Of a stretch of DNA of 32,000 nucleotides, positions 1,249-10,985 are shown in pieces (position 1 is the first letter of the stretch; every line of letters starts with the position of its first letter). Origin of the DNA: an uncultured Mycoplasmatota bacterium (lineage in GTDB: Bacteria; Bacillota_I; Bacilli_A; RF39; UBA660); NCBI GenBank assembly GCA_900547225.1, contig URFW01000002.1:140392-172391 (forward strand), read 5' to 3'. A program made the translations under genes and the position numbers. The notes beneath the pieces were generated by a model. That model was not told the DNA's origin and made no database searches. It was given only the letters and a program-made list of their open reading frames with translations.

Positions 1249-3744
1249 ATGTTAGGATTTTTAAAGAAAATTTTTGATCATGAATATAAAGAATTAAAGA
1301 AGTTTAAATTAATTGCAGATGAAGTATTTGAGTTAGATGATAAATATAAAAAGATGACCGATAAACAACTTCAAGGATGCACTAATAAATTAAAAAAGAG
1401 ATTAAAAGATGGTGAAACGGTAGATGATATATTACCAGATGCTTTTGCAGTAGCTAGAGAAGCAGCTTACCGTGTAATTGGGGAAAAGCCATTTTATGTA
1501 CAGGTTTTAGGAGCCCTTGCAATTCATTTTGGTAATATTGCAGAAATGAAAACTGGTGAAGGTAAAACTTTAACTTGCGTTATGCCAGCATACTTAAATG
1601 CATTAACTGAAAAAGGTGTTCACGTAGTAACGGTTAACGAATATTTAGCAACTCGTGATGCCGAGTGGATGGGTCAAATATATAGATTTTTAGGATTAAC
1701 AGTAGCTGTTAACTTAAGAGAAATGTCATCTAAGGAGAAAAAAGAAGCTTATAACTGTGATATTTTATATTCAACAAATAACGAATTGGGTTTTGACTAC
1801 CTAAGAGATAACATGGTTGTTAACGCTGAGGATAGAGTTCAAAGACCACTTCATTTTGCAATTATAGATGAGGTTGACTCTGTATTAATTGATGAGGCTA
1901 GAACTCCACTTATAATATCTGGTGGTGTTATGAAGTCAGCTAATCTTTATAAGGATGCTGATAGATTTGTTAAAACTTTAAGAGAAAATGAAGATTATAC
2001 AATAGATGAAAAAACAAAAGATATAACATTAACAGACCAAGGAACGGAAAAAGGTGAAAAATACTTTAGAATAGCAAACCTTTATGATATTGAGCATTCT
2101 GCATTAGTTCACCACGTTAATCAAGCATTAAAAGCAAACTATACAATGCATAATGATGTTGATTATGTTGTTCAAGAAGGTAAGGTTGTAATTGTTGACC
2201 AATTTACCGGAAGACTTATGCCTGGTAGAGCATTTTCTGACGGGCTTCATCAAGCAATTGAAGCTAAAGAAAACGTAGAAATAGAAGAAGAAACAAAGAC
2301 ACTTGCTACCATTACATTCCAAAATTACTTTAGAATGTATGAAAAGTTATCTGGTATGACAGGTACTGCTAAAACAGAGGAAGAAGAATTTAGAAACATA
2401 TACAATATGTATGTAATTGAAATTCCAACTAACTTACCAGTAATAAGAGTTGATGCAGCTGATTTAATTTATTCAACAAAAGAAGAAAAATATAAGGCAA
2501 TAATCGCTGAAATCAAAAGAAGACACGAAAAAGGACAACCAGTATTAGTTGGTACAATTGCAATTGAAACCAATGAATTATTAAGTAGTATGCTAAAGAA
2601 AGCTCATATAAAGCATGAAATATTAAATGCTAAAAACCATGCAAGAGAAGCAGAAATAATTGCAAAAGCAGGTGAGAAGGGCTCTGTTACTATTGCAACT
2701 AATATGGCAGGACGTGGTACTGATATCAAGCTTGGAGAAGGTGTTAAAGAGCTAGGCGGATTATGCGTAATAGGTACTGAAAGACACGAGTCAAGACGTA
2801 TAGATAACCAGTTAAGAGGACGTTCAGGTCGTCAAGGAGATCCAGGTTATAGCCAATTTTTCGTATCATTTGAAGATGAATTAATGGTAAGATTTGGTAC
2901 TGATAGATTTAAGTCTATCTTAGAAATGGCTGGTTTAGATAGTGAAAGAAACATGCGTAGTAGAACTATTACAAGATCAGTTGAAACAGCACAAAAAAGA
3001 GTTGAAGGAAACAACTTTGATGCTCGTAAACATTTATTACAATATGATGATGTAATGGGTAAACATCGTGAAATAATGTATGCTAGGAGAAATGAAATAC
3101 TAGACAATGAAGATGTTCACAACTATGTTATTAATACAATGAAAGAGCTTATTGAATTACTAGTAAGAAGACACACTAATGAGCATGGTGTAATTTTAGA
3201 AGCTGATTGTAATGAAATAGTTGAATATGTAAATGAAAACTTACTTAATAATTCTAACTTAAAATTATCTGAAATATTAAATAAGGAAATAAATGACATA
3301 ATTGATGTTATACAAAGCAAGGTATTAAAAGAATATGAAGAAAAAATAAAAGAATTACCTGATGAAATAAGAAAAGACTTTGAAAAAGCTATAAGCTTAC
3401 AAGTCATTGATAACTACTGGATGGAACATATTAATACTATGGACCACTTAAGAGAAGGTGTTTCATTAAGGGGTTATGCTAATGAGGATCCTCTTCAAGC
3501 TTATATAAGAGAAGGATTTGAATTATTTGATAAAATGTTAGATAACATTTGTAAAGATACTACTTTGTATTTATTAAAAGCTGAAATAAGACAAAATTTG
3601 CAAGCAAAGCAAGTTAAGGGAAGTACTAACGAAGCAAAAGAACAAGGAGTAAAAAAGACTATTAAAAAGGGTAAGAAAATAGGACGTAATGACATGTGTC
3701 CTTGTGGTTCGGGAAAAAAATATAAGAATTGCTGTGGAAAGTAG
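1249..3744 (+). CDS. secA: preprotein translocase ATPase SecA
   Basis: 831 aa. Walker A MKTGEGKT, DEAD-like IIDEVDSVLIDEARTPLIISG, TNMAGRGTDIKLG, and the C-terminal zinc-finger tail CPCGSGKKYKNCCGK. AAGGAGA RBS. Confidence 0.98.
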   Translation: MLGFLKKIFDHEYKELKKFKLIADEVFELDDKYKKMTDKQLQGCTNKLKKRLKDGETVDDILPDAFAVAREAAYRVIGEKPFYVQVLGALAIHFGNIAEMKTGEGKTLTCVMPAYLNALTEKGVHVVTVNEYLATRDAEWMGQIYRFLGLTVAVNLREMSSKEKKEAYNCDILYSTNNELGFDYLRDNMVVNAEDRVQRPLHFAIIDEVDSVLIDEARTPLIISGGVMKSANLYKDADRFVKTLRENEDYTIDEKTKDITLTDQGTEKGEKYFRIANLYDIEHSALVHHVNQALKANYTMHNDVDYVVQEGKVVIVDQFTGRLMPGRAFSDGLHQAIEAKENVEIEEETKTLATITFQNYFRMYEKLSGMTGTAKTEEEEFRNIYNMYVIEIPTNLPVIRVDAADLIYSTKEEKYKAIIAEIKRRHEKGQPVLVGTIAIETNELLSSMLKKAHIKHEILNAKNHAREAEIIAKAGEKGSVTIATNMAGRGTDIKLGEGVKELGGLCVIGTERHESRRIDNQLRGRSGRQGDPGYSQFFVSFEDELMVRFGTDRFKSILEMAGLDSERNMRSRTITRSVETAQKRVEGNNFDARKHLLQYDDVMGKHREIMYARRNEILDNEDVHNYVINTMKELIELLVRRHTNEHGVILEADCNEIVEYVNENLLNNSNLKLSEILNKEINDIIDVIQSKVLKEYEEKIKELPDEIRKDFEKAISLQVIDNYWMEHINTMDHLREGVSLRGYANEDPLQAYIREGFELFDKMLDNICKDTTLYLLKAEIRQNLQAKQVKGSTNEAKEQGVKKTIKKGKKIGRNDMCPCGSGKKYKNCCGK

Positions 3745-3876
3745 TATAAAACAAGGAAAAAATTGAATTTAAGAAAGGTAACAAATTTGTTGTTTGTCAA
3801 CCAATAAATAAAAATGTGGACAAAATCCATTGAAATTAAATGATGTCAGCAAAAAGTAATTTGTTGACATTTTTTA

Positions 3877-4677
3877 TTGAAGGGGATGAAAAGAATGATG
3901 GAGTTAAATAATTTATTAAAATCATTAGATATTGATAAAGATTATCACGACAAAATTTTTGGCAATATGATATTTGAAAATTTATATACAAAAGTAGATT
4001 TAAATAAGTATGCTGCTATAAAAAATAAAATTTATTGGATGAGCTTATTGATATATAGAATATCTATGACAAACTATTTAAAATCGATTAACAAGAATAT
4101 TAATTTTGAAAATAAATTTATTAATATCGAAAAAAACAATCTAATGGTTTTTCATTTATCGCTAAACATTACAAGTGAAATTTGTAAACAATTTAGTAAT
4201 GGTGAAATATATCCATCATATATTTCAATGTTATGTAGGCAAATAATAGAACAAATATGTTTTATTAAAGAAGTTAAAAATGAAAATATAAATTTACAAC
4301 TTATAGTAGAATCTGCTTTAGAATCGTATAATAAACAATTAGGAGCAAAAAGCTTAAATATACAAGAATTGAATGATAATAATAAAGGATTACTGAAAGT
4401 TTTTAAAGGTAAAAAATCATATGGAAAACTTGCAAAAAAATATAAATATGGGTATATGTATAATTTCTTTTCTGGAGATATTCATTTATTATCACAAATT
4501 GATAAATTAATACCATTTAATACCAATCATTCAACGCAGTATTATGATATATATTTTAATTGTATTTTAACTTTGTTAAAGGATTATTTCTTGCTCATAA
4601 ATGATTATAATACTGAAGTAAAAGTAGATGTGACAAAATTAAATCAAATTAATTTTATGGAAATAAAAGATAGTTAA
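3877..4677 (+). CDS. hypothetical protein (islet cargo A); helical, distantly related to cargo B
   Basis: The ORF opens at TTG 3877. The likelier start is ATG 3895 or 3898, 8-11 nt after GAAGGGGA. No recognised catalytic motif. It shares a G-x5-Y-x-S-x(1,2)-R-x-I/A-I-E segment and a His segment ~80 aa downstream with the 407-aa ORF. Confidence 0.6.
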   Translation: MKGMKRMMELNNLLKSLDIDKDYHDKIFGNMIFENLYTKVDLNKYAAIKNKIYWMSLLIYRISMTNYLKSINKNINFENKFINIEKNNLMVFHLSLNITSEICKQFSNGEIYPSYISMLCRQIIEQICFIKEVKNENINLQLIVESALESYNKQLGAKSLNIQELNDNNKGLLKVFKGKKSYGKLAKKYKYGYMYNFFSGDIHLLSQIDKLIPFNTNHSTQYYDIYFNCILTLLKDYFLLINDYNTEVKVDVTKLNQINFMEIKDS

Positions 4678-4712
4678 TTAGATGGATTAATCAACTATCT
4701 TTTATTTTTTAT
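4665..4712 (+). terminator. rho-independent terminator after cargo A
   Basis: AAAAGATAGTT (4665-4675) pairs with AACTATCTTTT (4693-4703), followed by ATTTTTTATT. Confidence 0.5.
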
Positions 4713-4751
4713 TAGATTGAATTGAAATAATAGTGATTAAAGAAAGGATAA

Positions 4752-5998
4752 GTGACAATAATGATCAATATTAGAAAAAGGGGTAAAGTGTATCAATATT
4801 GCTTTGAAGCAGGGAAGGTAAATGGAAAAAGAAAACAAATAACTAAATCAGGTTTTAAAACTAAAAATGAGGCATATATAGCTGGACAAAAAGCATACGA
4901 TGAATTTATAAATGGAATAACTAATGTAGAGTGTAATATGTTATATGGAGATTATTTAGACTATTGGATGAAAGAATATTTTGAAATAAACTATAAATAT
5001 TCTACTGCAAGGAGATATAAAGAATCTTTTAGGAATATTAAAAAGGAATTAGGTAATTATAAGTTATCAATTTTAACACCATATATTCTAAATCAAGCGC
5101 TATTAAAGTTATATCAAACATCTGGCACAAGGAACGCATTAAGAAATTATCAAAAGGTTATTAAAAGTTCGTTGAGGGATGCAACTTACTATTTTGGATT
5201 TATTAAGAATAATCCGGCTGGTGATTTGGAGATACCTAGAGTATTATCATTTGAACTAAAAAAAACAATATAGGTCACATCTATACTGAAGAAGAAATAG
5301 AAATAATTTTGGGCAGATTTAAGAATAACAAAGTTTTTGTATGTGCATTTTTAACTGCTTGCTATACGGGAATGAGAACTGGTGAAGTATTTGCTTTAAC
5401 TTGGGATGATATTGATTTAGAAAATAGAATAATAAAAATTAATAAGACCGTTTACGCAAAAGATAAAGAAGAAAATGGCAGATGGTATTTAGGTACAACA
5501 AAAACAATAGGCAGTAGTAGAGAAGTTTATATTTGTGATACTCTATATTCAGTATTATCTGATTATAAAAATCTACAAGTTAAATATAAAAAAGAATATG
5601 GCAAAAAGTATAAAAGATATACCTTAAAAGAAATAAAAAATAAATATGGTAAGTTAATAGAATATAAAGTTATAGAAAGTCAATCTAGAAATAATAAAAT
5701 TCAAATGGTATTTACTAGGAAAGATGGAACTTATTCAGGAACAGATATTATTAGATATCCATTTAGAATAATTCATTATGAATTAGGAATTCAATGTAGA
5801 TTTTACGATTTAAGAGGAAGTTTTGCTACTATAAGTTTAAGAGGCGGGTGTGAAATAAAAGATATTGCAGAGGTGTTAGGGCATAAAAGAATAGAAACTA
5901 CCGAAAAATATTATATTTCAAGTACAAGTGAAGATAAGAAAACGGTTTCAAAAATATTAGAACAAAATCTCAAAAACTATAGTAATCTTAAAATGTAG
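4752..5998 (+). pseudogene. int: tyrosine recombinase (phage-type integrase) split by a frameshift at an A8 tract
   Basis: The N-terminal ORF (4752-5273) has an arm-binding AP2-like domain (RKRGKVYQY...GKRKQITKSGFKTKNEAY) and a SAM-like core-binding domain. The C-terminal ORF (frame open from 5255, ends 5998) has the catalytic domain (TGMRTGEVFALTWDDID, YDLRGSFAT, LGHKRIETTEKYY with the Tyr nucleophile). The frames meet at A8 (5258-5265), and one extra A would fuse them. Confidence 0.85.
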
Positions 5999-6037
5999 AT
6001 AAATTGTTATTTTTATGAAATGATGATATAATTTTAT

Positions 6038-7261
6038 ATGAAAAATTTACTTTGGAGAAGAAATATGAGTGATAATTTTAAATATAGTGAATGGAGAAAA
6101 AATGAAAATATAAAACGATATGAAATTCCTAATGTTGAAAACTATTTTGAAGATTTAATGAATATTGAACATTCATTTTCAGGAAGAATGGATATACCAT
6201 TAGCAAACACTTTTATAATGGAAGCGGTTCAATTAGTTGTTAATTCTATTTCTCTTTTTGAATTAGGTTATTTTGATAATGCTTACTATTCCTTAAGGGA
6301 AGCTATTGAAATATCAACAACAATAGTTTATTTATCAGATATGCCAGATGAAGAAAGACGAGAAAAAATGGAAGATTGGAAAAATACTAAAGATTTTCCA
6401 ATGCAAGGACAAATGTTAAATCAGTTATATCAATATGGGATAGTAATATCCGATATGAAAGAGAAAATGGAATCATTTTTTGATGAAATAAAAAATGTTA
6501 GCAAAAAGATAAATAAATGTATTCATAAACAGGGGTTAAGATTCTTTTATGTTAGCAGAAATCATCCAATAAATATAAAAAAGGATGATAAAGTATTTAT
6601 TGAAAATTATGTTGACTTTTTGGAAAAAACTATTGGAATAATTGCAGTTATGAGATTGGCAATAGATCCATATCCTGTATTATTAATGGATGAAGAAATA
6701 TTATTAAGATGTTTTGATTCGATGACAGAAGCATATAAAAATGAATTTGTAGAAAAATATATTACAAATGAAACATTAAAAGATTATAAAAAAACAGAAA
6801 TGTACATAAATCACTATAATGGACATATTACCGAAGAAAAAAAGAATTATGCTGTTTTTGATATAATGAAACATCAAGTTATAGATACAACAAAAATAAA
6901 AGAGATATTATCGCAAATCCATTTATTAGATAATACGGATAAAATAGCAACATATATAGCATTGATTTCTAAAAAGGTTGTAAAGATATATACTTATGGT
7001 GGTCTTCAAATGTATTTTACTGATAGAAAAACAAACAGAAAGGCACTTTCATGGGATGGTATGGAATTTAAACAATTTGAAGAAAGTAATGAAAAATTTA
7101 ATCAAAATTATGATGAAGTTTTTATATCAGTATTCACTTATAATATAGGAGATAATAAACAAGAATCTTTTTTTGTCGAACATAATGAGTGTTTAAACGA
7201 TTATGACATTAATTTGATAAAAGAATTGTCTGTAGATAAAATTATGGAAGACCAGGGTTGA
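6038..7261 (+). CDS. hypothetical protein (islet cargo B); helical N-terminal domain of DUF5677-like appearance
   Basis: The likelier start is ATG 6065, after GGAGAAG. LFELGYFDNAYYSLREAIEISTTIVYLSDMPDEERREKMEDW resembles, from memory and unverified, the G-x4-A-x3-R-x3-E-x6-YL...P-x-E pattern of DUF5677/Abi-associated helical domains. Confidence 0.6.
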   Translation: MKNLLWRRNMSDNFKYSEWRKNENIKRYEIPNVENYFEDLMNIEHSFSGRMDIPLANTFIMEAVQLVVNSISLFELGYFDNAYYSLREAIEISTTIVYLSDMPDEERREKMEDWKNTKDFPMQGQMLNQLYQYGIVISDMKEKMESFFDEIKNVSKKINKCIHKQGLRFFYVSRNHPINIKKDDKVFIENYVDFLEKTIGIIAVMRLAIDPYPVLLMDEEILLRCFDSMTEAYKNEFVEKYITNETLKDYKKTEMYINHYNGHITEEKKNYAVFDIMKHQVIDTTKIKEILSQIHLLDNTDKIATYIALISKKVVKIYTYGGLQMYFTDRKTNRKALSWDGMEFKQFEESNEKFNQNYDEVFISVFTYNIGDNKQESFFVEHNECLNDYDINLIKELSVDKIMEDQG

Positions 7262-7303
7262 CACTAAATAATATATTTTATATAATTGTAGCAAGTGAAC
7301 GGA

Positions 7304-7320
7304 TGTGGACACTGTCCACA
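7304..7320. repeat. perfect 17-bp palindrome TGTGGACA-C-TGTCCACA in the right arm of the islet
   Basis: Read directly. A third TGTGGACA copy lies in the left arm at 3815-3822. Confidence 0.8.
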
Positions 7321-7350
7321 ATATGTACACGTTAGAGAAATACTTATAGT

Positions 7351-7444
7351 ACAGGTAATATCATAAATACAAATAATATAGATGTTACCTAGTCTGGAAA
7401 AGCCTGAAATACAGGTAATATTATAAATACAAATAATACAGATA
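7351..7444 (+). repeat. two ~33-bp direct repeats spaced 60 bp apart (candidate integrase arm-type sites or iterons)
   Basis: 7351-7383 ACAGGTAATATCATAAATACAAATAATATAGAT and 7411-7443 ACAGGTAATATTATAAATACAAATAATACAGAT differ at 2 of 33 positions. Confidence 0.75.
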
Positions 7445-7464
7445 ATATGGGAGTACAAAGTTCA

Positions 7465-7506
7465 TGTGGCTCAGGAAAAAAATACAAACAATGCTGTGGA
7501 AAGTAG
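7465..7506 (+). repeat. displaced secA 3' fragment (attR-side copy of the SecA zinc-finger tail)
   Basis: In frame it reads CGSGKKYKQCCGK-stop. The upstream in-frame codons (..SS) lack the first Cys, and no ORF or RBS precedes it. Confidence 0.7.
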
Positions 7507-7507
7507 G

Positions 7508-7545
7508 CTCGCAAAGCCTTATAAATAAATGGCTTGCGAGTTTTT
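7508..7545 (+). terminator. rho-independent terminator, probably the native secA terminator
   Basis: CTCGCAAAGCC (7508-7518) pairs with GGCTTGCGAG (7531-7540) with one bulged A, followed by TTTTT (7541-7545). Confidence 0.75.
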
Positions 7546-7690
7546 CTATGATTACAATATTTAGGTAATTTTAGGAATGTCTTTTGTCTTAGATAAGTTG
7601 TTGAATAAAAACTTGCAATGTTTCAATAAAAAATTCTCTAAAAATTAATATTTATTACTATCTGATGCAATAAGAGGCTAAGATTTATTC

Positions 7691-7718
7691 TTAGTCTTTT
7701 TATAATTTATGATATAAT
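7691..7718 (+). promoter_or_regulatory. candidate promoter of the WYL regulator gene with extended -10
   Basis: TGaTATAAT: TG at 7710-7711 and TATAAT at 7713-7718. Weak -35 TTAGTC at 7691-7696. An inverted repeat CTAAGA/TCTTAG (about 7678-7695) overlaps the -35 and could be an operator. Confidence 0.35.
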
Positions 7719-7734
7719 GAATGTAGGTGATTTT

Positions 7735-8337
7735 ATGTCTAAAGTATCTAATGTTATAACAATGCTAGAATTGTTACAAAACGGAAAAAAATATAGTATT
7801 AATGAACTTTCTAAAGAGCTTGAAGTATCAGAAAGGATGATTAGAGTTTATAAAGAAGATTTAGAAAAAGCAGGAATTTATGTAGATACAATTATGGGAC
7901 CATATGGAGGATATGTATTAAATCAGCAGATTCGTATGCCAATTAGAAAATTTAAATTAAAAGATACAAAATTATTAGATAAATATATATTAAAAGAAAA
8001 AGATAAGAAGATAAAAGAAGAATTAATTATGCTTCAAGATAAAATAAAAGGAGTTTATATAGGGAGCAAACAAGAAGAAAAAGAGTTAAATTTAAAAGAA
8101 GAAACTGGAAAAAAATACAATTTGTTAACAAGAGCCATAAAAGAAAAAAGAAAAGTTAAATTATTGTATTATTCTTATGGTAAGGGTGAAAATCAAAGAA
8201 TTATATATCCTGCTGAAATGTTTTTGTTTCAAAATGGTTGGTACTGTGCAGCATTTTGTGAAATGAGACAAGATATTAGACATTTTGAATTGAAAAGAAT
8301 AATAAATTGTGAATTATTAGATGAAAAATATGAGTAG
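7735..8337 (+). CDS. HTH plus WYL domain transcriptional regulator (YafY/BrxR/CapW-like architecture)
   Basis: N-terminal winged HTH (ITMLELLQNGKKYSINELSKELEVSERMIRVYKEDLEKAG). C-terminal WYL domain (KVKLLYYSYGKGENQRIIYPAEMFLFQNGWYCAAFCEMRQDIRHFELKRI). The track ORF starts at 7717, but that ATG overlaps the -10 box. ATG 7735 follows AGGTGA. Confidence 0.8.
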   Translation: MSKVSNVITMLELLQNGKKYSINELSKELEVSERMIRVYKEDLEKAGIYVDTIMGPYGGYVLNQQIRMPIRKFKLKDTKLLDKYILKEKDKKIKEELIMLQDKIKGVYIGSKQEEKELNLKEETGKKYNLLTRAIKEKRKVKLLYYSYGKGENQRIIYPAEMFLFQNGWYCAAFCEMRQDIRHFELKRIINCELLDEKYE

Positions 8338-8349
8338 ACGAAATATTGC

Positions 8350-8381
8350 CTCCTTTTAAGTTATAGTTAACTTAAAAGGAG
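8350..8381 (+). promoter_or_regulatory. perfect 14-bp hairpin whose 3' arm contains the RBS of the downstream gene
   Basis: CTCCTTTTAAGTTA (8350-8363), loop TAGT, TAACTTAAAAGGAG (8368-8381). The AAAGGAG SD of the ATG at 8389 lies inside the 3' arm. No U-tract follows. Confidence 0.7.
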
Positions 8382-8388
8382 AATTATT

Positions 8389-9663
8389 ATGGAAAATAAA
8401 AAATTTATAAAACTGATATTAAATGATGAATATATTAATTGGATTAATATTTTTATTGAACAATATGGGGAATTTGACGATTGCTATTTTCTGCACAACG
8501 GTAGAGAATTTTTAAGCGAAAAAGACCTTATTTTTATTGGTTATATATCAACTTTGTTTGATCAAATTAATAAATATGGATTTAAAAATGGGATTACATT
8601 TAAAAATACATTTTGTTATTTGCTAAAATACAATGAAAAATTTTATGAAATTTTTGATAACGGAGATTGTTACTGTTGTAAAATTGGTGAAAAAGATGAT
8701 AATGTGCCAGTAATAGACTATAATCAATTCAAAAAATATTATCAAAAAAATATGCAAGTTAATTTTGATATTTTAAAAGAAAGAGTTATTGATTCATTAG
8801 AATCTACTGATTTGAAATTTATTAGAAAAGAATTATCTAAATTAAGTGGTCCAACATTATTTAGTGGTGTTGGAGGCTCAAGTGTGGTTAGTGAATTTGG
8901 AGCAAAGGTTATTAATGCTAAAAACGGTATAGTTTCAATAAATAGTGAGCCAAGAGACTTCTTATATCAAAATAATAAAGCATTTAAAAATGTTATATCA
9001 TGTAGTTACAGCGGAAATAATTACGGAGTTGAATTATCTTTTGAAAATCAGTTAAAAAAATATCTATTATCCAACAACTCTTTTAATGATAGTGATGTAA
9101 CTTATTTAAAATATAATACTAATATTCCAAAAGAAAATAGTTTTATTTCTGTTGGTGCTACATTAATTCCGGTAAGCATATTGATGGACTATTATTTAAA
9201 TGGACAAAAAAATTTGATATTAGATTGTATAGAAGAATCATCATTTGAATTTGATTTAGAAAGTGATATATACGAAATATTTAGTGGTTACGATACAAGT
9301 GTGGCATCAAAATATTTAGAATCAACTATGGTTGAATCCGGAATTGGAATACCAATAGTTCATGATAAATATTCTTATTGTCACGGTAGGAGTACACTTG
9401 CTATTAATTATAATAATGTAGCTATTTATTATAATAGAAATACTGAATTTGACAGAATCATGCTAGAAGAATTGAAAAAATATTATAGTAGAATTATCAC
9501 TATTGATTCCAAATTTGAAGACCAAATATTAGATGATTATCAAATGCTTGTGCAAAGTATGTATCTAACAAAGTATATTTCTTATAAAAAAGAAAAAGAT
9601 TTATCCAAAGTAGAATATTCACCAATAACAAAAAAATTGTATAAATATAATGGTCAAATTTAA
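8389..9663 (+). CDS. hypothetical protein: unknown Cys-containing N-terminal domain plus a SIS-like (sugar-isomerase-fold) ligand-binding region
   Basis: 424 aa. LFSGVGGSSVVSEFGAKV..., VISCSYSGNNYGVE and SFISVGATLIPVSIL match the G-x-G-x-S / S-x-SG-x-T / helical layout of SIS domains. A second degenerate half (IFSGYDTSVASKYLE...YCHGRS) follows. The N-terminal ~140 aa is unrecognised. Confidence 0.6.
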   Translation: MENKKFIKLILNDEYINWINIFIEQYGEFDDCYFLHNGREFLSEKDLIFIGYISTLFDQINKYGFKNGITFKNTFCYLLKYNEKFYEIFDNGDCYCCKIGEKDDNVPVIDYNQFKKYYQKNMQVNFDILKERVIDSLESTDLKFIRKELSKLSGPTLFSGVGGSSVVSEFGAKVINAKNGIVSINSEPRDFLYQNNKAFKNVISCSYSGNNYGVELSFENQLKKYLLSNNSFNDSDVTYLKYNTNIPKENSFISVGATLIPVSILMDYYLNGQKNLILDCIEESSFEFDLESDIYEIFSGYDTSVASKYLESTMVESGIGIPIVHDKYSYCHGRSTLAINYNNVAIYYNRNTEFDRIMLEELKKYYSRIITIDSKFEDQILDDYQMLVQSMYLTKYISYKKEKDLSKVEYSPITKKLYKYNGQI

Positions 9664-9868
9664 TTATGATAATTTTTCTTAAAAAAATATAATTTCATAT
9701 TCTAGATATTTTAAAAGAAATTTTCGTTGGTTATAATTTATTTATATTTTTTATGTATTAAAGGTTTAAAAATTTTAATAGAATTTAAAATGTTAAAAAA
9801 TATTATGTTTTTTTTGTAATGGATTTAAATAAGAAAAAAAATGTGTTATAATTACAATAGGTGATTAT

Positions 9869-10985
9869 ATGGAGATTACAAATAAAGATATAGAAATATT
9901 AAATAGAAAGTTTAATCAAATATGGAGGTCTCTTTGAGGTAGAAGAAAAACAAAAAGAGATAAAAAAACTAAATGAAAAATTATCAGAACCAAATATTTG
10001 GGATGATAGTAAGAATGCAGAAAAACTAACTAAAAAAATGAGTGAATTAAATGAGATTATTAATCCTATTATTAAGTTGAAAGAAAATATAGATACTTTA
10101 AATCAGTTTAAAGAGTTTGATGAAAATACCTTAGATTCTGCTTTAAAAAAAGAATTTGAAAAATTATATGAAAATTCTACTATAGAGTTAGAAAAGCAAG
10201 AAACTCTTACATATTTATCTGGAAAATTTGATAATAATGCCGCCATTTTTGAAATACACGCCGGGGCAGGTGGTACGGAAAGTTGTGATTGGGCAATGAT
10301 GCTTTCTAGAATGTACACAAAATATTTTGATAAAAAAAATTATTCATATGAAGTAATAGATGAGCAAGAAGGCGAAGAGGCCGGAATAAAAAGTATTGTG
10401 TACATTGTAAAAGGAGCATATGCTTACGGGTATTTAAAAAACGAAAAAGGGGTTCATAGGCTAGTTAGATTATCTCCGTTCGACTCAAATAACAGGCGTC
10501 ATACTTCTTTTGCAGCAGTTGATGTTATACCAGAATTTGACGACGATATAGATATAGAAATAAAAGATTCCGACGTTAGAATAGACGTATATAGAAGTAG
10601 TGGGGCCGGGGGACAAGGAGTAAATACAACTGATTCTGCTGTTAGGGTAACTCATATACCAACTGGAATAGTAGTTACTTGTCAAAACGAACGAAGTCAG
10701 ATAAAAAATAAAGAAACAGCACTTAAAGTTTTAAAAAGTAAGCTTTATCAAATAGAACTAAAAATGAGAAAAGAAAAAATAGATTCTATGAAAAGTGACC
10801 ATAGTGGAATAGAATTTGGATCACAAATAAGAAGTTATGTACTTCATCCATACTCAATGATAAAAGACCATAGAACAGGTTATGAAACATCTAATGTTAA
10901 TAAAGTTTTAGATGGTAATTTAGACGGATTTATAGAAAGTAATTTAAAAGGAGAAAAAATAAATGAGACTAATAAGAAAAATTAG
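9869..10985 (+). CDS. prfB: peptide chain release factor 2, requiring a programmed +1 frameshift at codon 23
   Basis: Frame 0 reads MEITNKDIEILNRKFNQIWRSL, then TGA (9935-9937). The +1 frame continues EVEEKQKEIKKL... into the 315-aa track ORF, which has SPF (RLSPFDS) and GGQ (GAGGQGVNTTDSAVR) motifs. Confidence 0.95.
9924..9937 (+). promoter_or_regulatory. RF2 autoregulatory +1 frameshift site
   Basis: Internal SD-like GGAGG (9924-9928), 3 nt, then CTT TGA (9932-9937). This is the canonical SD-CUU-UGA arrangement. Confidence 0.9.

Follow-up and report, generated by a model that had tools for sequence, protein, structure and literature searches.

The stretch of DNA analysed here (the window) covers 32,000 nucleotides (nt) of contig URFW01000002.1 (positions 140,392–172,391; assembly GCA_900547225.1) from an uncultured Mycoplasmatota bacterium. 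Between its secA and prfB genes it carries a pair of forward-strand genes coding for a WYL-domain transcription factor and a sugar isomerase (SIS)-type protein. The product of gene 1 is referred to below as WYL, that of gene 2 as X, and the gene pair (WYL-X) as the module. Genes in this region run in the order csp, hpf, secA (1249–3744), a 3.76 kb integrase islet, WYL, X and prfB, and the interval under study, 7546–9868, runs exactly from the old secA end to prfB. Its upstream boundary (7460–7545, + strand) consists of the displaced 3' end of secA, which is the right attachment site (attR) of the islet (3745–7506), followed by the secA terminator. The islet is bracketed by a 47-nt sequence from the secA 3' end that occurs twice (7460–7506, 83% identical to 3698–3744), and the displaced terminator was read from the sequence at 7508–7545. 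Both open reading frames (ORFs) of the module lie between this terminator and prfB, outside the islet, as a preliminary description of the region had placed them.

The X Protein

The gene for X (8389–9663) specifies 424 amino acids (aa), with a core of ~305 aa (residues ~120–424; 8737–9663, + strand). Searches with X itself returned no Pfam or PDB sequence match, and PHROGs and PADLOC gave nothing usable either. The AlphaFold model of the full-length protein is of medium quality (predicted local distance difference test (pLDDT) score of 67 in the SIS part), and when it was compared to the PDB using Foldseek, the top 50 matches were all double-SIS proteins (probability 1.0, E-values from 2e-6). 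They include Lmo0035, an archaeal glucosamine-6-phosphate (GlcN6P) deaminase, PH0510, the GlmS/GFAT isomerase domain, AgaS and FrlB. A profile built from 56 diverse members of the X family retrieved SIS structures at E = 1e-5, with the FrlB-like structure 3eua aligned in both halves, and distant members of the family pass the Pfam SIS model directly (e.g., P0262, 37.7 bits against a cut-off of 25). Since the structural match, the family profile and the Pfam matches of distant members agree independently, residues ~120–424 can be assigned to a double-SIS domain of the GlmS-isomerase, FrlB and phosphoglucose/phosphomannose isomerase (PGI/PMI) type. The SIS-like region previously recognized from short motifs is confirmed by these results.

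Across the 56 members, which are 25–50% identical, the sole invariant residues are G162, G163, S164, E316, H332 and G333. The motif S206-x-S208-G209 is invariant among close members, and the Thr position of SxSGxT is occupied by Asn211. E316 and H332 are 16 residues apart and align to the Glu and His of 3eua. In FrlB/FraB and GlmS, the Glu acting as general base and the His acting as general acid are also exactly 16 residues apart, and the phosphate is bound by Ser46, Ser91 and Ser93 (PMC10285752). Because the Ser/Glu/His pattern of FrlB and GlmS is reproduced, X is better seen as a working enzyme than as a mere ligand binder, and by its residues it looks like a catalytically intact sugar-phosphate isomerase-type enzyme. 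Scores to the NCBIfam model TIGR02128 (archaeal-type bifunctional PGI/PMI) were weak and sub-threshold (15.8–31 bits against a cut-off of 213.9), and no NCBIfam equivalog level was reached by X. The preliminary description had also considered that X might turn out to be a characterized isomerase with an intact site; the fold does match isomerases and deglycases, and the Ser, Glu and His residues are intact, but the homologues do not lie in sugar catabolic operons.

Residues 1–116 (8389–8736, + strand) form a lineage-specific N-terminal domain. Predicted separately, its model is confident (pLDDT 92) but shows no significant fold match in the PDB or BFVD. The window-type N-domain is absent from most X orthologues, which are core-only proteins of ~305 aa. 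The earlier picture of a phosphate-binding, SIS-type region (GGS164, S206-x-S208-G209) joined to an unrecognized N-terminal part is upheld, with two corrections: the N-terminal part is ~116–120 aa rather than ~140 aa, and conservation of its Cys cluster does not extend to divergent members. A conserved zinc site at this cluster was considered and dropped, as those members lack the Cys residues concerned.

The X Family and Its Genomic Partners

When clustered at 90%, the X family has ~1,500–1,600 relatives; at 50%, the number of clusters is 267. Its hosts are all gut or rumen organisms (Bacilli). The relatives bear no functional name: a few are annotated as 'hypothetical protein', and one fusion carries the IMG label 'FrlB-like'. 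A set of 172 loci from genomes and metagenomes was examined, in which individual loci are designated by L-numbers (e.g., L018). The window matches L001, a locus of Clostridium sp. CAG:594, which belongs to the uncultured Bacilli of the gut. A WYL gene is found immediately upstream of X, with a gap of ~51–67 nt, in 53 of the 59 informative X clusters (L087 corrected), and at least five clusters (L005, L054, L063, L092 and L123) have X but no WYL. N-terminal additions to the X core vary, and include the window-type N-domain, a PfkB ribokinase-like kinase, a Ham1 nucleoside triphosphate (NTP) pyrophosphatase and other unknown extensions. At the PfkB-X fusion locus, X is 32% identical and WYL still 49%, and the Ham1-X fusion is also paired with WYL. 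Directly after X there is a gene for Ham1 in 4 of 57 clusters, for PfkB in two (plus L093) and for a Nudix protein in one, and Nudix and Macro genes are present near some modules.

No transporter, epimerase or GntR-type regulator was found near X in any of the 172 loci, and there is no constant neighbor besides WYL, the 729 adjacent ORFs forming 456 clusters, 328 of them singletons. It had been pointed out before that a transporter, kinase or other catabolic partner is missing and that an ordinary sugar operon was unlikely. The window indeed has no kinase or transporter, and the judgment on the operon holds for the homologues, which are not in sugar catabolic operons; the lack of a kinase, however, does not extend to the relatives in which PfkB is fused or adjacent.

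Genes for DUF1848 proteins were seen upstream of two distant WYL-X modules. In L091, one (4443–5366) abuts WYL, with a DNA_alkylation repair gene and SbcC as neighbors. The L089 gene (3342–4220) is ~1.3 kb upstream of WYL-X with two opposite-strand genes between, and reverse transcriptase and ASCH genes are found downstream. These neighbors could point to a theme of DNA or nucleotide damage.

An RNA Element between WYL and X

The junction of the two genes contains a cis-RNA element (8334–8394, + strand), detected by covariance and folding, in which the motif GUAGACGAAAUA is followed by a 14-bp hairpin (8350–8363 paired with 8368–8381). The 3' arm of the hairpin contains the Shine-Dalgarno (SD) sequence of X (AAGGAG, 8376–8381), and a U-rich tract runs from it into the AUG of X at 8389. 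The WYL stop codon is ~12 nt ahead of the stem. The minimum free energy of the window element is −18.5 kcal/mol (z = −5.25), and no Rfam family matches the intergenic element. RNAalifold gave no pairs on a MAFFT alignment of the intergenic sequences, in which indels had shifted the arms out of register, and the stem was recovered using a covariance model (R1) and re-alignment. This model matched 77 of 86 sources and subsequently 46 of 56, each time once per locus and solely where WYL meets X, and elsewhere in 1.9 Mb there were only weak matches to the reverse strand of the same palindrome. In the alignment, which was fitted to the model, 93.9% of the cells are paired compared to 80% in shuffles and 38–57% in slid controls; in this same fitted alignment, compensatory double changes occur in 10 of the 14 stem pairs, along with many G-U pairs. 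The SD sequence is within the stem in all 49 distinct sequences, and 32 of them have a run of six or seven U residues after the stem, up to the AUG. In the window this tract is degenerate (AATTATT).

The possibility that the hairpin is a DNA operator was set aside, as the stem varies with compensatory and G-U pairs whereas the helix-turn-helix (HTH) domain of WYL is nearly invariant, and for this reason a role as RNA is favored. The element, as read from the sequence, is an intrinsic-terminator-like hairpin that also occludes the ribosome binding site (RBS) of X, and since it is both terminator-like and SD-burying, X would be made only by read-through together with opening of the stem. Judging from the ~12-nt distance, a ribosome terminating at the WYL stop codon could open it. 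In L066 (4718–10915), WYL and X are ~4.7 kb apart owing to inserted genes, and the element is still directly before X (9950–10009); from this it appears to travel with X.

The WYL Regulator and Its Promoter

Gene 1 (7735–8337, + strand) codes for a 200 aa transcription factor with HTH_11 and WYL domains. It was listed as a 206 aa ORF (7717–8337), but comparison with ~75 orthologues places the true start at the ATG at 7735. The orthologues begin MSK(V/I)SN after an AGGTGG SD sequence, and the window protein begins MSKV, with an SD of AGGTG at 7725–7729. Since the ATG at 7717 overlaps the −10 box (TGATATAAT), and given the common start of the orthologues, the later codon is preferred. Matches to Pfam HTH_11 (2e-8) and WYL (1e-16), and a full-length match to the PADLOC CRISPR-associated WYL model PDLC01457 (3e-29), establish gene 1 as the HTH-WYL regulator it had been taken for. 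In the numbering of the 206 aa ORF, HTH_11 spans residues 15–66 and WYL 134–199; the protein stops seven residues past WYL, so there is no room for a WCX domain. Consequently, the BrxR/CapW-type architecture proposed earlier does not apply. The nearest solved WYL domains in the PDB are those of PafBC, PafC, CapW-type proteins and BrxR, which are 291–318 aa in length except for the 664 aa fused PafBC. WYL proteins are 49–90% identical across all variants of the module.

The extended −10 box of the WYL-X transcript (TGATATAAT, 7710–7718, + strand) was read from the sequence and is shared by many orthologous loci, where it is ~16 nt upstream of the start codon. Immediately upstream of it, and over the −35 position of the promoter, is an inverted repeat (7672–7700, + strand; arms CTAAGA, 7678–7683, and TCTTAG, 7689–7694) with a 12-bp stem followed by a T-run. 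It is terminator-like and could represent a candidate operator, or a hairpin/terminator insulating the module from upstream transcription. A family-wide promoter operator was looked for but none was found, and the 7672–7700 repeat is kept only in close relatives (L001-3, L025, L027 and L029-31).

Mobility, Selection and Flanking Genes

The divergence of WYL-X is decoupled from that of its flanks, and the cassette is horizontally exchanged. Compared to L012, the flanks share 96% DNA identity and the module 83.5%, while in the comparison with L002 the module is 97–99% identical and the flanking proteins 81–96%. Between distant species, SecA shows ~0.25 nonsynonymous (dN) and 1.1–1.6 synonymous (dS) substitutions per site. 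The corresponding dN of WYL is 0.07–0.16 (0.07–0.09 in five of six comparisons), and for the X core dN is 0.11–0.16 and dS 0.65–1.15. Both module genes are under purifying selection (omega of 0.07–0.23). More distant copies of WYL-X are found at unrelated genomic sites, and one metagenome-assembled genome (MAG), CAKOTU01, contains two divergent modules (L038 and L076, with X 68% and 56% identical to that of the window), one at the prfB locus and one elsewhere.

A copy of the secA 3' attachment site is present downstream of X in L017, L018, L019 and L025, and an integrase remnant is directly upstream of WYL in L025 and L029-31. Because the module is att-bounded in these relatives and accompanied by integrase remnants, the arrangement suggests that it is old islet cargo at the same hotspot. 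In L018 (200–14130), three copies of the secA 3' end bracket two tandem islands, the first with genes for a radical SAM protein, an HD-Nudix fusion and RhuM, and the second with genes for a nucleotidyltransferase, an AAA_15 ATPase with a reverse transcriptase, and a Schlafen/AlbA_2 protein, followed by WYL-X. The view that the secA-prfB gap is a composite accessory hotspot is borne out by such relatives, which hold integrase islets and genes for RhuM, reverse transcriptase with AAA_15, Schlafen and Fic proteins at this position.

An integrative islet occupies the secA 3' end in the window (3745–7506), and the tyrosine integrase it codes for is broken into two ORFs in different frames, one (4752–5273) with the arm-binding and SAM-like domains and the other (5309–5998) with the catalytic domain, and the same split is present in the L010 copy, which is 96.5% identical. 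The cargo ORFs of 266 and 407 aa belong to no family, except for a weak match to DUF5677. Just inside attR, a 47-nt sequence is repeated directly and imperfectly at a period of 60 bp (7337–7383 and 7397–7443), possibly representing integrase or excisionase arm sites. On the other side of the module, prfB starts at 9869 and has its usual programmed +1 frameshift site (CTT TGA G) at 9932–9938, preceded by GGAGG at 9924–9928; the ORF list holds only the downstream frame (10038–10985) of this gene (9869–10985).

Possible Function of the Module

The interpretation we favor, tentatively and with a probability of roughly 0.4, is that WYL-X is an autonomous, mobile and gated enzyme cassette acting on an intracellular sugar phosphate, probably nucleotide- or amine-linked, in a clean-up or stress role. 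The short HTH-WYL factor, transcribed from its own promoter, would autoregulate that promoter, and its WYL domain would respond to a nucleic-acid or nucleotide-derived ligand. X would be expressed only by read-through of the hairpin that buries its SD, which would keep its level below that of WYL and tie its expression to what happens at the WYL stop codon; the enzyme would isomerize, deaminate or deglycate a phosphorylated ketose, aldose or ketosamine. The substrate would most likely be a sugar phosphate from inside the cell that is linked to, or originates from, nucleotides or amines, because fusion or adjacency to Ham1, Nudix and PfkB recurs and a transporter is never present. The function would be an inducible clean-up or stress response, not nutrient catabolism.

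Several observations weigh against this interpretation. The window X falls below the gathering score of Pfam SIS (PF01380) and has no SIS match. The residues equivalent to T96 and E98 of FrlB are N211 and G213 in X, so the substrate of FrlB cannot be transferred to it. Adjacency to Ham1, PfkB or Nudix is seen in only ~12% of clusters, mostly in divergent branches. Lastly, a toxic defense effector would account equally well for the hotspot location, the swapping of alleles and the OFF control in several layers.

WYL regulators stand at the head of bacteriophage exclusion (BREX) loci and of loci for cyclic oligonucleotide-based antiphage signaling systems (CBASS). As raised in the preliminary description, WYL-X could have a sensor or defense role. 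In a new anti-phage or abortive-infection system, WYL would sense single-stranded DNA, RNA ends or nucleotide signals and release X, which, alone or with a fused Ham1, PfkB or N-domain, would deplete or alter an essential sugar phosphate or nucleotide precursor. Such a system would be consistent with the CapW- and BrxR-type proteins among the nearest PDB relatives of the WYL domain, with the variable N-terminal enzymatic modules on a constant core, and with X being held off at several levels. The setting points the same way, as the module lies in an integration and defense hotspot with RhuM, reverse transcriptase plus AAA_15, Schlafen, Fic and AbiLi-like neighbors, is att-bounded in some genomes, diverges independently of its host and occurs as two divergent copies in one MAG. 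However, the claim of a defense system obtained no direct support. X has no PADLOC match, and gene 1 is not directly upstream of a known defense system (the best PADLOC match of X is to Avs2, at E = 0.045). Homologues of X were looked for in phage records, plasmids and IMG/VR, and none were found. The taxonomic range is narrow, and the X core is at least as well conserved as SecA between distant species. Among 150 neighbor clusters, counted with no background control, housekeeping genes are mixed with matches to RhuM, Fic, AbiLi and PDC; some loci, L018 among them, are rich in defense genes, and no defense partner is constant over the 456 clusters of adjacent ORFs. Of the association with WYL regulators and defense genes that had been proposed as a check, the first part is evident in the 53 of 59 clusters with WYL upstream, but that with known defense systems is inconsistent, and on balance we consider a defense function unlikely. 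Somewhat less probable again is a more elaborate form, an undescribed anti-phage or anti-mobile-element conflict system whose effector is an isomerase/deglycase-type enzyme for sugar phosphates, silenced by promoter repression, the intergenic terminator and SD occlusion, and in which WYL might bind the GUAGACGAAAUA RNA motif as well as DNA, acting as a ligand-dependent antiterminator of its own operon.

The use of fructosamines (Amadori products) or amino-sugar phosphates, similar to FrlB/FraB or NagB-II and with kinase and transporter encoded elsewhere, would agree with the FrlB-like catalytic pair, the PfkB-type kinase fusions (one fusion being named FrlB-like in IMG), the gut and rumen hosts, and the GlcN6P deaminases and FrlB among the Foldseek matches. 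The frl/fra operon context is absent, there being no transporter, epimerase or GntR-type regulator in the 172 loci, and among the relatives only a minority carry PfkB. X reaches no NCBIfam equivalog, its partners are hydrolases of nucleotides rather than sugar genes, and a WYL factor with a terminator-gated RBS would be unusual for catabolism, all of which makes this explanation improbable.

A toxin-antitoxin-like module, with the DNA-binding WYL protein as antitoxin and repressor and X as a metabolic toxin translationally coupled to it, seems still more improbable. The regulator comes first, the spacer is tight (~51–67 nt), the SD-sequestering hairpin ~12 nt past the WYL stop would permit translational coupling, and the module is mobile, with an islet context. 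Yet X, at 305–424 aa and with the appearance of an intact isomerase-type enzyme, is unlike known toxins, is strongly conserved, occurs without WYL in some clusters and is absent from the plasmid collection. Finally, SIS domains act as sensors in RpiR/MurR, MurR SIS structures are among the weak profile matches and the two genes are strictly co-inherited, but that X is a non-catalytic, ligand-sensing partner of WYL (a split RpiR/MurR-like regulator) is very improbable, as the invariant Glu, His and phosphate-loop Ser in 56 members of 25–50% identity are hard to explain without catalysis, and X is also fused to enzymes.

The proteins of WYL-X, which we tentatively regard as an enzyme cassette, both come from known superfamilies, and WYL-headed cassettes are already known. 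What appears to be undescribed is the unannotated SIS family of X, the fact that it is obligately paired with a WYL factor lacking WCX, and the terminator/RBS hairpin with its covariation, and a literature search for WYL together with SIS found nothing relevant on the family, the pairing or the RNA element. The hosts of this dark-matter enzyme family are Bacilli of the gut and rumen that are abundant, uncultured and small in genome size. The family is experimentally tractable in having a strictly paired and very conserved WYL partner, recurrent fusion to nucleotide house-cleaning enzymes and a covarying hairpin that can serve as a built-in reporter. If its function were resolved, the SIS superfamily could gain a new class of substrates, and a ligand and a target could be named for the first time for a WYL regulator lacking WCX. 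If defense were the true function, it would represent a metabolic effector type absent from current catalogues.

Comparison with Known Systems

In common with BrxR, CapW, PafBC and DriD, gene 1 codes for an N-terminal winged HTH followed by WYL, is the first gene of its operon, and is presumably autoregulated and ligand-gated. It differs in its length of 200 aa, in lacking a C-terminal WCX domain and in being unusually conserved family-wide, and it precedes the gene for an SIS enzyme rather than BREX, CBASS or DNA-repair genes.

X resembles FrlB/FraB and the GlmS isomerase in its tandem SIS domains, its length of ~300 aa, the phosphate-loop Ser residues and the spacing of Glu and His, and those relatives that are fused to a PfkB kinase are reminiscent of FrlD plus FrlB. 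On the other hand, it is only ~12–16% identical to FrlB, FraB and GlmS, is below Pfam and NCBIfam membership, and has the T96/E98 replacements. It also differs from FrlB/FraB in lacking a frl-type operon with its transporter and GntR regulator, its partners being WYL, Ham1 and Nudix. The PGI/PMI family of TIGR02128 and the NagB-II/PH0510 GlcN6P deaminases are its best NCBIfam and Foldseek neighbors and are of similar length (~300–330 aa), but the scores are sub-threshold and the genomic contexts unrelated.

The intergenic element shares with intrinsic terminators and RBS-sequestering attenuators a stem-loop with a U-tract, an A-rich 5' flank and an SD sequence in the 3' arm. Unlike these, it is situated between two co-inherited genes, with the U-tract directly adjoining the AUG of the second; a 12-nt motif on its 5' side is conserved, and the element matches no Rfam family.

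In the ADP-ribose processing operons predicted by comparative genomics, a WYL factor was proposed to sense a nucleotide-sugar moiety and so de-repress sugar-nucleotide enzymes (PMC9503650). These operons, regulated by WYL or Nudix transcription factors, have in common with WYL-X the WYL factor and a sugar-nucleotide theme, with Nudix and Macro genes near some modules, but they are centered on ARG, Macro or phosphatase enzymes and have no double-SIS protein (PMC9503650). The link to the module described here is purely thematic.

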